Part shown: positions 1 to 63,652 of the stretch, in pieces
Layout of the letters: every line of letters starts with the position of its first letter
Position numbering within the stretch: the stretch's first letter is position 1
The notes under the pieces: model-generated
What the model saw: the letters and a program-made list of their open reading frames with translations, nothing else
The model's database searches: none
What the model was told of the DNA's origin: nothing
Program-made: the position numbers and the translations under genes
Assembly: GCA_964016885.1 (NCBI GenBank)
Contig: OZ024757.1
Span: 11,656,001 to 11,720,000, forward strand
Length of the DNA: 64,000 nucleotides
Direction of reading: 5' to 3'
Origin: Eledone cirrhosa
Taxonomy: Eukaryota

Positions 1-176
1 ATATATATACATATTTATATATATACATATATATACATATATATACATATATATATATATATATACATATATATATACATATATATACATATATATATAT
101 ATACATATATATATATATACATAAATTAATAAAATAATGAATAAACAAAGAAACAGTTCCTTATATTTAAAAAATT

Positions 177-316
177 CATCATTTTACGATCGTTTCTAGG
201 ATATATATGTGTTAGAGTTGGTATGCATATTCTATAGATCTATGTACAATATTTATACAAACTATCAGAGGGAATATACATACTTACACATATATATGCT
301 GTCTTCAGAAATAATG
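177..316 (-). ncRNA. Hammerhead ribozyme, family A (long stem II)
   Basis: Reverse complement of the 2284-2423 motif. Confidence 0.75.
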
Positions 317-1514
317 ATATTTGTTTATTGAAATAAACAAAGATTCAATAACATAGGTCTGTTTGGGAACAGGTTTTGAATTGACCAATAGAGAGATAGT
401 GAGGGTCAAGATAGTAATATAGTAGTAGAAGAACCTTAAATTATGGGTAGAGGAAGGTAGATTTCAGTTTTGGATGGAAAAGAATATTATGAATGAAGGA
501 TTATTTTAGGGAGGAAATAGGTCTTATGCTGACCTCAGAAATAATTTTATTTGTTCATTGAATAAAACCAACAAAGATCTAATATATTCTGTCTGTTTGG
601 TAAGAGGTTTAGAATTAACCAATAGAAAGTTAATAATTGGCCAAATGGTAAAATAGTAGTAATTGAAGCTTATTTTAGGGGTGAAAATAGGTCAGGTGGT
701 CAGTAAAAGGTATACAAGCAGTTGCTGTTATAAAATAGTAATGCCAATAGAAATATCTAAGGTGACTAAAGTTTTACGATAAGAATGTTAGTGAAAAAAA
801 TACATCTATGAAAAGAATATAAATTAATTTAATTGATGGGTATATTTATATTGATAAAAATTATACTAATACATATAGATATGATAAATAAGAGTTAGAT
901 GCAGTTGAAAAGTGCTGTTAAAGATGAGGGGAAATTAAAAGAGTATAAAAATAATATATATATATACTTATATATATATATATATATACATATATATACA
1001 CATACACACACATATACACACATATATATATATATATATATATATATATACACACACACACATATATATATATATATATATATATATATATATATACATA
1101 TACATGCATATATACATACATATGTATATATACACACATACACACTTACATATACATATAATTATTGGGGGGGGGGGGAATTAAATTTATTAGTGAGAAA
1201 TAATAAATATATATAGTTTTCAAGGAACATAGAGTCATAACCTGAAGTTAAAGCATTATATATGTTTACTTAATGGTATCAGTTTTAGGAAATGATAGTT
1301 GTAAGAAGGAAAGCAAAGTTATGTAGTTCATCAGTAGTAGAATATTAATTATAGGTTAACTAAATTAAAAATAGTTTACATATTAATTTCTAAAGTGTAT
1401 ATTAATTAGGTTTATAATGTTTAAAGCAGAATTATGTAGTTCATCAGTAGTAGAATATTAATTATAGGTTAACTAAATTAATAATAGTTTATATATTAAT
1501 TTCTAAAGTGTATA

Positions 1515-58802: not shown

Positions 58803-61800
58803 TACAATATTAAATAAATGGAAACTATATTTATAAAACCATATTTATTTCATTATATATATTTCGGGGATATCATATTAACAATATGCTATGCCTTCCT
58901 CAGACAAAATACAATATAAACAGTTTTATAGACAAATAGATTCGACATACCGTAATAACACCGACTTGCATTTGAAGAGGTTAAACTGGCAGTGAAAAAA
59001 TTTTACACAGAGAGAAAGAAAGAGAGAAAAAAAAAGAGAGAAAAAAAAGAAAGAAAGACAGAAAACGAAGAAAAGGAAGAAAAAGAAGAAATGGATGGAA
59101 CAAAATAGAGAGATGGAAATATAGATAAAGAGAAGAACTTCATGTAAAGAAACAGAAAGATATATATATATATAGAGAGAGAGGAAATAGAGATAGATAC
59201 ATACATATATAGAAAATTAGGTAGTGGGAGGTCAGTTGAGTAAATGTATCAATAATACATTTATTTATTTATTTATTTATTTAGCTCTAGTATTAATGTA
59301 AGGGAGATATATATAGAGAGAAAAATATAGAGAGAGAAAAAATAGCGAGAGAAAAAATTTAAAAATAGCCAGATATATTCGAGGCGTAAAAACCCTGTTT
59401 TAATGTATTAGTATTTATAAAACTTCTACTATATTGTAAATATCAGTATTCCTGAATGAGATAAGTATCCATAGCGTGTGAAAATTAATTATCTTATGTT
59501 TAGTTTTTTAAAAAATTCATATGTTTATGTGATAGCTACAAACATCCATGTGAATCCACATGATCAACTCTGCAAACTCTAGGTTCACGGAAAACATTCT
59601 CAATGTGGTATAAAAATTTGAGTATACATATATGTGTATTATTATTCCTGTCTTTACTCTACAAGATTATCTATCAAGCAGAAATAGAGAGCAGATTTCA
59701 ATATACTAATAAAAATATATATCAGAAACAAAACTAAAAAAATAAAAAGATAACAATAATAATAATAAGTAATAATAAAATAGAAAACTAAAAAAAAAAA
59801 AATATTACGAAAGAATATTGCATATTAAAAATATTACATATTAAAAATATTACGTATTAAAAAATTTACATATTAAAGATATTAAAAATAAAAATAAAAA
59901 ATATTATAAAAATACTACAATAATAAAAAATAAAAATAAACTACAAAGATCAACCCTTCAAAATTAATTGACAATATATTGCCAAGTTCATTATAAAACA
60001 AAGCCAAAAATTATCTATCAAATCACACCTAGCAAAGATCATTTCAAAAAGTTTATGATGTCCAATTTGGTCTACATGTGTTCTTATATTTAATATAGAG
60101 GTTTATCTAGTGTAAAGTTTATTCAAAATATTTGGAGCATCAGCTTTTAGGGTAGCTTAATTTTTCATGAGGAATGTTTAAATAAAAATAAAATAAAAAT
60201 AAACAATAAAAAAAAAAAAAAAAAAAATAGAATAAAAAGAAGGAATCAAAAATTTAAGGAATCAAAAATTTATCGGCTAGTTTCCCATGTAAATATAAAT
60301 CAAACTAAATATACTACATTTTAAATTTAAATTTATATTTAAACGTTGAGTTTAATCTATGTTTGCAACAACTGAATAAATTTGTCCGTAGATTAAGGGA
60401 ATTTTTAGATTTTAGTATAAAGAATATCTCCTCTGCGCAGAGGTCACATGTCTCAGAGGATGAATTAAAAGGAATCCCTCTTGAGACTATATTCCAAGCC
60501 GTCGAATATCTAACGTTATCTAGCTTAAGTTGCCAGAGTACGCCTGATAGTGCCGTTGAAGATTTTTTACTTGGATCTGTGAAAGAATTCTTGTGGTTAT
60601 TATAGCGAAGTTTAAATTCCGTCGATGTGGAACCGACGTAGTTAAAAGAATTAGAGTCAGTATTAACATTACAATTGTATACTATATTTTTAACTAAGCA
60701 GTTGTTATTTAACGGACATTTAGATCTATCTCTACAGTTACATTTGTTAACTTGTATATTATTTATGCTATTATCACTAGGTTTTAAGTTCCTATTATTT
60801 ATTCTATTAATATTTTGTGCTAAATTTTTGGTGGATGAGTAGGTTAATTTAATTGTATGCCTATTGAAAATTGAGTGATACCTATGTGTTCTAGGGAAGC
60901 GATTATCAAGAGCTTTGAAAAATAATTTAGCGATGTGGGTTTTAATGTTTAGTGAGAAAAGGGGGGTAAACCAAATTATGTTCCTAGTTCTATTTCTTTT
61001 TTGGCCTTTGGAATTATTGTAATGCTTTCTATTATAGTTGTTAAGGTTGTTGCCGTAATTAAAAAAGTTGTTACTTTGTTTAGTTTGTCTATCATTATCT
61101 ATGTACACAATCTTATCAGCATATCCTGCCCTAGCTAATGCTTCATTATAGTATTGGGCCTTTTCGTCGAAAATCTTTCTATTCGACGAGATCCTAGAGA
61201 TACATTTTTGAACAGAGTTTACTATAGTGTTTTTGACAGATCTGGGGTGGTTAGAGTTAAAGTTGACATAGTTTAAGTTTTCATTCAACTTGTGAAAAGG
61301 ATAGTGGAGACATGTGTTGAGATTTAATGTTATATCTAGGAAATTGACTATTCTATGGTTGTTCTCAATTTCTATTTTAAGGTTAAAGTAATTAAAAAAT
61401 TTTGTAATTTGTTTACATTTTCTATTTAGTTCAGGGTTATTATTATTAATAAGTAAAAGCATGTCATCCCTATATAAACCTCCGGTAGTACCAGGTATTT
61501 TCCTATGTAGCGAATTGATTAAAAATAAGCCCACAAGGTCAGTTACCTGAGCTGAGTCGGAAGATCCCATAGTTATGTCAAAATTGCTATCTCTATCTGC
61601 TCTGGTCCATAATTTGTCATTAAATTATATCAAAGATTTCCTAGCCGATAATATAATATGCATTTCTTTGCTAGTTAGGTCAGTATGTTTGAATGCGTAA
61701 TTTAGTGCCTTATTTAGTAGACTAGGGGTAATAGAAGAATAATAGTTAGCTATATCAAGTTGAATAAACCTATTATTATTGTTATATTTAATTTGCCTAA

Positions 61801-63652
61801 ACCACTCAACAACCTCTCCAGTTCCCTTCCACAAGCTCAGGTTAGATACACAATCCAAGTTCTTAATTTGCTGTATCACCCTGTCAAGAATGTTTTTGCT
61901 TAATTTGCCCAGGTCCGATTTTGATGGTGCGATCAATCTAACTGGCAGGTCATTTTCAAAATTCCTCTTGTGATCCTTCATATTGATCTTCGGTTTCCTG
62001 GGCACGAAAGGTTGTGTTCTGTTCTCAATTTCCAACTCGTGCATTATACAAGATGCTTCGACATTCATTTTCTCAAGTTCGGCCTTATCTGCTACCTTGT
62101 ACTTTTTCCTCAGCTTTTATCTGACTTTGAAAACGATATAATTTCTATCATACAAGGGGTCAAATTCAAGAGAAACTTCAAAGGCCAGGAATATCTGAAA
62201 GGCATTAAGGATAACATTGAGAGCTTAGAGAAAACTGAGAAGATCTTGGTGAAATCTGACAAGACCAACAACCTCTATGGAGTGCAGAAAGACATGTATA
62301 ATGACCTCATACTGAAAGAGCTGAGGAAAAAGTACAAGGTAGCAGATAAGGTGTGATTTGATAGATAATTTTTGGCTTTGTTTTATAATGAACTTGGCAA
62401 TATATTGTCAATTAATTTTGAAGGGTTGATCTTTGTGGTTTATTTTTATTTTTTATTATTGTAGTATTTTTATAATATTTTTTATTTTTATTTTTAATAT
62501 CTTTAATATGTAAATTTTTTAATACGTAATATTTTTAATATGTAATATTTTTAATATGTAATATTCTTTCGTAATATTTTTTTTTTTAGTTTTCTATTTT
62601 ATTATTACTTATTATTATTATTGTTATCTTTTTATTTTTTTAGTTTTGTTTCTGATATATATTTTTGTTAGTATATTGAAATCTGCTCTCTATTTCTGCT
62701 TGATAGATAATCTTGTAGAGTAAAGACAGGAATACACATATATGTATACTCAAATTTTTATACCACATTGAGAATGTTTTCCGTGAACTTAGAGTTTGCA
62801 GAGTTGATCATGTGGATTCACATGGATGTTTGTAGCTATCACATAAACATATGAATTTTTTAAAAAACTAAACATAAGATAATTAATTTTCACACGCTAT
62901 GGATACTTATCTCATTCAGGAATACTGATATTTACAATATAGTAGAAGTTTTATAAATACTAATACATTAAAACATAGGGTTTTTACGCCTCGAATATAT
63001 CTGGCTATTTTTAAATTTTTTCTCTCGCTATTTTTTCTCTCTCTATATTTTTTCTCTCTCTATATATCTCCCTTACATTAATACTAGAGCTAAATAAATA
63101 AATAAATAAATAAATGTATTATTGATACATTTACTCAACTGACCTCCCACTACCTAATTTTCTATATATGTATGTATCTATCTCTATTTCCTCTCTCTCT
63201 ATATATATATCTCTTTCTGTTTCTTTACATGAAGTTCTTCTCTTTATCTATATTTCCATCTCTCTATTTTGTTCCATCCATTTCTTCTTTTTCTTCCTTT
63301 TCTTCGTTTTCTGTCTTTCTTTCTTTTTTTTCTCTCTTTTTTTTCTCTCTTTCATTCTGTGTAAAATTTTTTCACTGCCAGTTTAACCTCTTCAAATGCA
63401 AGTCGGTGTTATTACGGTATGTCGAATCTATTTGTCTATAAAACTGTTTATATTGTATTTTGTCTGAGGAAGGCATAGCATATTGTTAATATGATATCCC
63501 CGAAATATATATAATGAAATAAATATGGTTTTATAAATATAGTTTCCATTTATTTAATATTGTAAATATACTCCAAATATTTGTCGAGTGCTTTTATATC
63601 AGTTATAAATATTTACTAGTTGTAACCCAACAATTTTAAATATAACTTTCCA
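58803..63652 (-). mobile_element. Penelope-like element family C, copy 2 (longest PLE here; fold-back)
   Basis: Arms 58803-60031 / 62349-63564 plus extension; body 60314-62117; inverted N-terminal ORF chunk 62118-62351. Confidence 0.93.
60314..62117 (-). pseudogene. PLE reverse transcriptase + GIY-YIG endonuclease (in-frame stop near 61625; N-terminus inverted)
   Basis: RLIAPSKS, QLDIANYYSSI, MGSSDSAQ, LYRDD, FLDITLNL, SNHP, CNCR..CPL..C, IVYNC...YVGST, CDLC..E. Confidence 0.92.

Follow-up and report, generated by a model that had tools for sequence, protein, structure and literature searches.

How do elements inserted in simple TA repeats come to lie there as fold-backs, the same terminal sequence bounding them in opposite orientations with one short and one long end? 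The question is raised by a 64,000-nucleotide stretch of the Eledone cirrhosa genome (assembly GCA_964016885.1, 3.0 Gb; contig OZ024757.1, positions 11,656,001 to 11,720,000), here called the window, which is rich in (TA)n and holds several families of Penelope-like elements (PLEs). A sequence-only reading of the window had proposed that one terminus of each element stops at a fixed short end, counted here as position 0, that the other runs on to a fixed long end, and that the two ends of a (TA)n break prime reverse transcription at these two sites, after which the cDNAs are joined. Self-comparison and reading of the termini showed that every element named there (families A to D, H and I and a ~522-bp tandem repeat) is present, with its termini in opposite orientation as one short and one long end. 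From the data described below, which extend beyond the window, we consider it probable (roughly 0.7) that the two-armed insertions of Hydra-clade PLEs arise from a single two-hairpin RNA on which the two sides of a (TA)n break each prime one cDNA.

The two end points are reused by independent copies elsewhere in the genome, as the terminus reading and the distribution of 3′ ends both indicated. TA-flanked 3′ ends lay at 0 or 137 in family A (a count that includes 30 loci picked with a long-end query), at 0 or 80 in B, at 0 or 88 in C and at 1 or 89 in D, a bimodal pattern in which 353 of 382 ends in the DNA examined fell within two narrow windows per family; the other 29 were mostly mapping artefacts, caused in the A reference by a TA-rich loop and in the C reference by a piece resembling a short interspersed element (SINE). 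The resulting tails are 137, 80, 88 and 88 nt long in A to D, ~95 nt in I, ~120 nt in the ~522-bp repeat and 161 nt in H. Both sites are AU/UA steps matching the target; the TA-like microhomology claimed for short ends was found, but it is not confined to them, since long ends likewise sit on 1–4 nt. In raw reads from three runs of restriction-site-associated DNA sequencing (RAD-seq) matching the family B pseudo-long terminal repeat (pseudo-LTR), loose (TA)n ends fell exactly at the short site in 2,771–3,176 reads per run and exactly at the long site in 8,198–11,517 reads per run, these being short reads from a restriction library with biased depth. One side of 10 of the 13 opposite-strand joints in these reads lay at −64 to −54. 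A further large peak of read "ends", at L127:3072, falls on an AATT site; it probably marks the cut of the RAD enzyme and was set aside.

Pairing of a short with a long end also held beyond the window. Exact matches numbered 1,128 for A, 14,563 for B, 7,432 for C and 11,383 for D, and the first 100 per family in genome order were taken (400 arms, contig C1), a sample that favours young copies. Among the matches listed, outward-facing pairs comprised 118 short–long, 4 short–short and 0 long–long (n = 122; p ∼2e-30 against 50%). Reading the DNA at the first 30, 30, 30 and 25 loci of A to D gave 77 short–long and no like-with-like insertions (n = 115), the remainder being 11 inverted copies with one unreadable end, 26 single-armed copies and 1 unmapped locus. 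Inversion is thus the majority outcome (88 of 115 loci), as had been proposed, although not a universal one, given the 26 single-armed loci and the exceptions in the window. Five like-with-like candidates were opened: L200 consists of two separate insertions, L196 is clean, and L197, L198 and L006/L024 have mirrored host flanks (at least 170 nt in L198), probably as secondary inverted duplications or local assembly errors. By a crude test, such flanks are rare in short–long copies (4 of 117). An apparent short–short pair of family A, L144, proved to have a degenerate long end. Either end may carry the body, again as proposed: among long copies it was on the short end in 16 and on the long end in 15, and 7 had similar arms. 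The two arms of one insertion differed less from one another than from those of other copies (0.3% versus 5.5% in C). In 73 of 128 short–long copies the arms were of similar reach, and in 38 the short arm reached >30 nt further 5′ than the long arm, the only one with a tail.

Pairing was also observed outside families A to D. A short–long pair lay within 250 nt at 8 of 30 family I loci, with no short–short pair in that range, and a long partner lay within 1.5 kb at 8 of 30 family H loci, all anchored on short ends by a search pattern whose last letter excluded long arms; two short–short-like H pairs occurred among the matches listed. The 13 insertions of the ~522-bp repeat gave 4 short–long, 1 irregular and 8 in which no partner was seen. 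Family N, a Neptune/Nematis-type PLE that the sequence-only reading had not listed as an element, was considered as a single-ended negative control and rejected as such, because the anchor was the N long end and the partner ends lie at −56; 13 copies pair ends at +4 and −56, and N therefore supports the pairing rule. The statement that the rule spans unrelated families fails for A to D, which are all Hydra-type, and stands with respect to N.

A third fixed point is shared by the two arms at their 5′ limit. Fold-back junctions cluster at −191 to −201 in A, −54 to −64 in B (87 of 124 ends in that range), −186 to −193 in C and −160/−161 in D, with 5′ stops peaking at −194, −60/−59, −190 and −160, respectively, each at a TCA/TTA motif whose A is +1. 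This motif resembles an initiator, and the stop is a predicted transcription start; family I, held out, stops at TTA+1GTT. In hand counts the purine just 5′ of +1 was G rather than A by 17 to 4 in B (p 0.013) and by 12 to 2 in D (p 1e-4), and in one D copy (contig C1:14380015/14380034) both arms carry an additional G; the extra G is likely the cap copied by the reverse transcriptase (RT). Both arms ended at the stop in 49 of the 128 short–long copies, both continued beyond it in 39 and only 1 was mixed, the other 39 having at least one shorter arm; a hand count among the matches listed gave 17, 25 and 1 for the same three classes. Tandem copies extend 764–2,159 nt upstream of the short end, far beyond the start site. 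Hammerhead cleavage was rejected as the cause of the stop, which lies 40–160 nt upstream of the predicted cleavage sites, as was a splice acceptor, the +1 being preceded by TC or TT and not by AG. Internal promoters are known from the Penelope pseudo-LTR (PMC2377424). In A and I the predicted start coincides with the 5′ edge of hammerhead stem I. In four insertions (L009, L030, L081, L104), five arms carry a ∼177-bp tRNA-like SINE exactly at A −194, with 5–16 bp duplicated. Elsewhere in A there was one such insertion; the same SINE forms part of the family C 3′ untranslated region (UTR) and was also noted at I loci L094 and L223. Position −194 may be a target-site hot spot or a place of template switching at run-off, and these insertions were not used as evidence for jumps.

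Each of the two end sites is followed by its own copy of a bulged hairpin. In whole units of the elements, behind each short and each long site in the 5′ UTR, after 3–7 nt, comes a hairpin made up of RCUC, an upper stem with its loop, a two-base bulge that begins with U, and a closing GAGY. A strict scan of the sense strand of the 4.2-kb A unit returned two matches only, at +5 and +142; in B it returned +6 and +84 with one alternative pairing, and in C +6 (chance per site ≤0.5% by shuffling). Among 11 aligned sites, with the long-loop A sites and the I short site left out, 54 of 55 cells pair and 8 are changed on both sides, a result equalled in 0 of 500 shuffles. After the motif had been defined, the hairpin was found at the long site of an H element (L077). 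An element on a metagenome contig (L231, 37% identity) has a hammerhead core, then two hairpins, then the ATG, and two metagenome copies (L232/L233) lie in non-TA DNA and terminate right in front of the second hairpin.

Families A to D are Hydra-clade PLEs inserted in (TA)n, as judged from their sequence features. Whole units, obtained from tandem copies elsewhere in the genome, measure 4,190/3,995 bp in A, 3,118 bp in B, 3,997 bp in C and 3,673 bp in D. Family B has an intact open reading frame (ORF) of 719 aa at L127:3296-5455 in which the RT is followed by a C-terminal GIY-YIG-type endonuclease, and the broken A, C and D units keep the same order. The RWK-type motif reads RWR/RWT in A to D, the DKG-to-DKT change is present in A, B and D but was not seen in the C copy examined, all four units have the CxCX5C linker and the CxxC and CxH around conserved E and N, and CCHH is absent from the A to D translations. 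TA-like flanks were present on both sides of 116 of 128 short–long copies. Two features differ from published Hydra-clade elements: the units are 3.1–4.2 kb long rather than the <3 kb that is typical, though not defining, of the clade, and the tails, 60–161 nt across families against 30–40 bp in PLEs, are longer, with a tail-like role. A hammerhead core motif was found by pattern in C, D and the ~522-bp repeat and by eye in A, and B has a U3-A8 variant core, likewise by eye. An Rfam scan at the gathering threshold gave no match, and a Pfam scan of ten ORF fragments from the window gave no family; a protein search gave 2,054 relatives among 8,000 candidates scored. Family H has a Hydra-like ORF start (L077), and no ORF was seen in the DNA read for I and the ~522-bp repeat. 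The endonuclease frame of family N (L244) matches Neptune/Nematis-type features given in PMC8557442, the two clades not being separated by phylogeny. The ~522-bp repeat forms arrays of up to 3–5 monomers at 522-bp spacing with the hammerhead core motif in each monomer in the window; by sequence it agrees with the definition of non-LTR retrozymes, in which the tandem monomers are non-coding and every one has a type I hammerhead.

These observations are consistent with the mechanism that the sequence-only reading had sketched, now supported by bimodal ends, short–long pairing and junctions in raw reads, and we infer from the DNA that priming would occur from both sides of the break on one RNA, with one site per DNA end. 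The RT-endonuclease would bind with one subunit per hairpin and cut both strands of (TA)n; each DNA 3′ end would pair with the 1–4 nt just 5′ of its hairpin and prime a cDNA, giving one arm at the short and the other at the long site, and the cDNA 3′ ends would be joined through microhomology or a few filler bases into a head-to-head inversion. If the template is a capped transcript made from the pseudo-LTR promoter, both cDNAs would finish by run-off at its 5′ terminus, and the product would be a miniature fold-back that is dead (∼200 bp in B); long and tandem copies would need a template that continues upstream of the stop, most likely a circle made by the hammerhead. Two independent primings are required because the short arm outreaches the long arm in the 38 copies described above while only the long arm is tailed. 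Long-ended genomic copies stop before the long-site hairpin and hence lack it at the 3′ end, so the transcript of an ordinary copy has the hairpin pair only near its 5′ end, and long arms therefore need a circle, strand transfer or a longer tandem. The joint behaviour of the two arms at the stop and the upstream extension of tandem copies favour the circle, which has been proposed as the template of PLE tandems (PMC4209133). We give an even chance of being correct to the fuller version of this model, a programmed twin priming: on a single RNA, the two hairpin copies would allot a separate RT start to either end of the double-strand break, the kind of template would set the outcome, and retrozymes would hitch-hike.

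A different route to paired arms would be a single cDNA, primed at the long site, that folds back and copies itself, after which the endonuclease would cut the returning strand back to the short site; this resembles the self-priming suggested in PMC3846280 and the endonuclease-mediated tail resolution of PMC8557442. It would explain short–long pairing, near-identical arms and symmetric junctions, and the copies with arms of similar reach and the many D junctions that overlap on a short palindrome agree with it. However, it requires the returning arm to be a subset of the first, and one folding cDNA cannot give a short arm that reaches beyond the tailed long arm, so it is excluded for the 38 such copies (A1, C1, C2 and I2 among them); the extra G on both arms of one D copy and the RT starts at both sites seen in vitro for an Anolis element (PMC11167929) also speak against it, and we consider it improbable as a general account. 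Only slightly better placed, and still unlikely, is the use of two separate ribonucleoproteins, one per DNA end, with the pairing set by an asymmetric protein complex rather than by a shared RNA. A predicted dimer could hold two RNAs, and transcripts of one source locus would also place matching variants in both arms, but the shared 5′ limit (49, 39 and 1 copies) would be unexplained unless both RNAs were always of the same class. That the fold-backs reflect misassembly or the copying of a few master elements is very improbable: the three like-with-like pairs with mirrored flanks might suggest it, whereas junction coordinates vary from copy to copy, the arms are asymmetric and diverged, mirrored flanks are rare in short–long copies, and the raw reads of three other runs carry short ends, long ends and strand-switch joints, the last point answering the concern, raised with the original proposal, that the inverted arms might be assembly artefacts.

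The most substantial competitor, which we regard as possible but doubtful, keeps twin priming but does without circular RNA: long copies would arise when the growing strand transfers by homology from the capped 5′ end of the RNA to its 3′ pseudo-LTR, or when genomic tandems are read through. Strand transfer may be involved, in that the five A arms broken exactly at −194 have SINE-like filler and resume at −179 to −190, as a jump would, and in that hammerhead cleavage is dispensable in vitro (PMC11167929). The 5′ ribozyme of B is incomplete in a transcript starting at −60, and the tandem copies of L199 differ slightly more (11/887) than its two arms (23/4,053). Independent jumps, on the other hand, should mix short and long arms, and only 1 of 89 copies is mixed; tandem copies run far past the start site; and ordinary target-site duplications would explain the SINE breaks just as well, −194 being the second most covered of 14 ATTAT sites.

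Several observations weigh against twin priming on a hairpin-bearing RNA. Single-armed copies make up 26 of the 115 loci read, with 11 more having one unreadable end, and in the window they occur at 4870–5076, 30490–30563, 17312–18340, 32206–33221 and 3879–4686. The strict scan missed the long sites of C, D and the ~522-bp repeat, the short site of I and the mutated reference copy of the D short site, since sites with short upper stems escape it; the count of 54 paired cells in 55 is biased toward structure, the motif having been defined on the same A to D sites; and minimum-energy folds of whole 5′ UTRs recovered some hairpins, not all. Family N pairs its ends although the structures behind them are different and lack this hairpin, and it shows 4 long–long pairs among the matches listed, taken from that listing rather than from the DNA. 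The similarity of the two arms could be due partly to gene conversion. Circle formation is harder to envisage for B, whose stop falls within hammerhead stem II, and no RNA run was listed as containing the family B unit. The Anolis PLE protein showed no strand difference in start site in vitro, in an assay whose scope did not include pairing (PMC11167929).

In the window, A1 is a Hydra-type fold-back at 121–2616, with its short end at 121 on the minus-strand ORF-bearing body, its long end at ∼2613–2616, its inversion junction at 2201/2209 and its linker and endonuclease frame (CxCx5C, CxxC..E, CxH) at 1515–2144 on the minus strand. Its plus strand carries the initiator-like A of the predicted start at 2285 (position −194), a putative hammerhead-like motif recognized by sequence (2285–2425 including the start; core CTGAAGA at 2292, GAAA at 2404, palindromic stem III) and, 4 nt behind the short site, the bulged hairpin of that site (ACUC-UGU...ACA-UU-GAGU, 2484–2564). 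A2 (35088–38114) consists of a long-ended minus-strand body to ∼37026, an inverted RT piece at 37028–37794 and a short arm at 37793–38114; its inverted arm passes from the pseudo-LTR (−319) to the RT (−2584 to −3353), restarting ∼330 nt upstream of the stop of the other arm (−2250). A3 (41830–43382) has its long end on the left and its short end on the right, with unrelated filler between the arms. The fold-back B1 (9308–11929) has its long end at ∼9310, its short end at 11929 on the ORF body, an endonuclease frame at 9972–10709 on the plus strand, a short-site hairpin at 9362–9385 on the minus strand and its predicted start A at 11869 (−60); the B hammerhead-like motif with the U3-A8 variant core lies at 11820–11915, with the predicted start inside the stem II loop. 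Miniature short–long fold-backs of B lie at 29812–29935 and 50943–51013, the second locally duplicated at 51188–51258. In an exception to the rule (50471–50556), two B long ends face each other tail to tail as a palindrome, with a TA run of ∼12 nt between them; a short-to-long opposite-strand joint in the raw reads (L127 3125/3205) may be compared with it.

C1 (∼22778–26837) has its short end on the body and its long end on the right, with a hammerhead core at 26649–26690 and the short-site hairpin at 26755–26774, and in C2 (∼58803–63653) a near-full-length RT-endonuclease body ends at the short site and the long arm is inverted. D1 (30638–32185) combines a 26-bp inverted short arm with a long-ended body (hammerhead core 31997–32043, short-site hairpin 32102–32126), and D2 (51279–53911) a long-ended body with an inverted short arm. 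H (16061–17200) has its short end on the left, its long end on the right and its short-site hairpin at 17045–17078. The miniature fold-back I (13052–13255) is long on the left and short on the right; further short–long copies of I lie at 15900–16040 and 50588–50670, and the single-armed copy at 30490–30563 has a short end. The ~522-bp repeat, non-coding and retrozyme-like, occupies 7595–8883 (long end 7595, short end 8883), with hammerhead cores at 8230 and 8750 and both hairpins within one monomer (8366–8389 and 8484–8504). Family N is represented by two single-armed copies, a minus-strand 3′ piece that ends at the N long site (32206–33221) and a second one at 17312–18340. The piece at 3879–4686 is a Hydra-type endonuclease fragment on the minus strand in which no inverted arm was seen.

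The window also holds an unassigned element with a further hammerhead-like motif at 5116–5500 (core 5172–5196, minus strand) and unassigned small inverted structures in TA-rich DNA at 13420–13860 and 29385–29425. Fragments of other RT and AP-endonuclease frames, of the long interspersed element (LINE) type, occur at 6369–7526, 14626–15930, 18382–20070, 43851–45609, 46873–50112 and 54529–56495, several of them likewise bordered by (TA)n. Positions 20826–21025 are an assembly gap of 200 N. Elsewhere in the genome, different PLE families often lie side by side in one TA run (L104, L081, L085, L121, L139), and L104 contains a head-to-head joint between a B arm and an A arm.

Inversion by twin priming is known from L1, in which two target ends prime on one RNA, as proposed here. 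In L1, the second primer acts at variable internal sites and the pieces barely overlap, whereas the present families have two fixed sites and a terminal region that is copied into both arms. The inverted copy with a one-sided tail of 30–40 bp has been described for PLEs, and almost all Hydra-clade families insert into (TA)n (PMC8557442, Craig et al. 2021). That account ascribes the tail to resolution by the endonuclease and, in its available text, contains no pairing count, hairpin or 5′ stop; its Hydra-clade units are <3 kb with tails of 30–40, compared with 3.1–4.2 kb and 80–161 nt here. For PAc, a Poseidon element of Anolis, two internal RT start sites define the tail in vitro, and both strands are cut and extended (PMC11167929, Frangieh et al. 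2024). The families described here share the two start sites and the AT-rich target with PAc, which also needs RNA 3′ of the start and is a predicted dimer. In PAc the starts lie inside the ORF at an AC-rich stem-loop, 30–40 nt apart, whereas those of the present families are in the 5′ UTR, with one copy of the duplicated bulged hairpin 3′ of each, and no one-site-per-end rule is reported in the available part of that paper. The ~522-bp repeat resembles non-LTR retrozymes in being a non-coding tandem with a hammerhead motif in each monomer (PMC4209133; bioRxiv 10.64898/2026.07.22.740005). Unlike known retrozymes, its monomer carries both Hydra-type hairpins and shows short–long ends, which points to the hairpins as the cis signal; the retrieved text of the retrozyme preprint (bioRxiv 10.64898/2026.07.22.740005) lacks the words "tail", "hairpin", "stem-loop" and "initiation", and the portion of PMC9977147 available adds nothing on ends. 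Inverted pseudo-LTRs, the one-sided tail, two RT start sites and (TA)n targeting are thus already published. Literature searches, whose scope excluded the Evgen'ev/Arkhipova 2004–2006 papers and the supplements of PMC8557442, found no account of the pairing rule, of run-off or of a duplicated hairpin, and the strict pairing, the hairpin cis signal and the evidence for a single template appear to be new.

We conclude that the phenomenon is real, genome-scale and common to more than one PLE clade. It bears on the origin of PLE tandem and inverted structures and of the one-sided tail, named as an open problem in PMC8557442, and on the steps after priming, left unvalidated for the Anolis PLE in the available text of PMC11167929. 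PLEs are the sister group of telomerase RT, and the genome data give the exact parts to mutate (two hairpins, two start sites, the predicted start and the (TA)n target), with the intact 719-aa ORF making the question directly testable. In other Hydra-type PLEs and retrozymes, element ends could be predicted from the hairpin pair, and the 1,100–24,000 exact-match arms per family account for abundant repeats that look like miniature inverted-repeat transposable elements and are probably run-off products. If the programmed model is true, dead miniature fold-backs would come in tens of thousands from capped transcripts, the long and tandem copies would come from circles made by the hammerhead, retrozymes would hitch-hike by carrying the same two hairpins, and a single mechanism would explain why PLEs of different clades have a tail, an inverted pseudo-LTR and a ribozyme.

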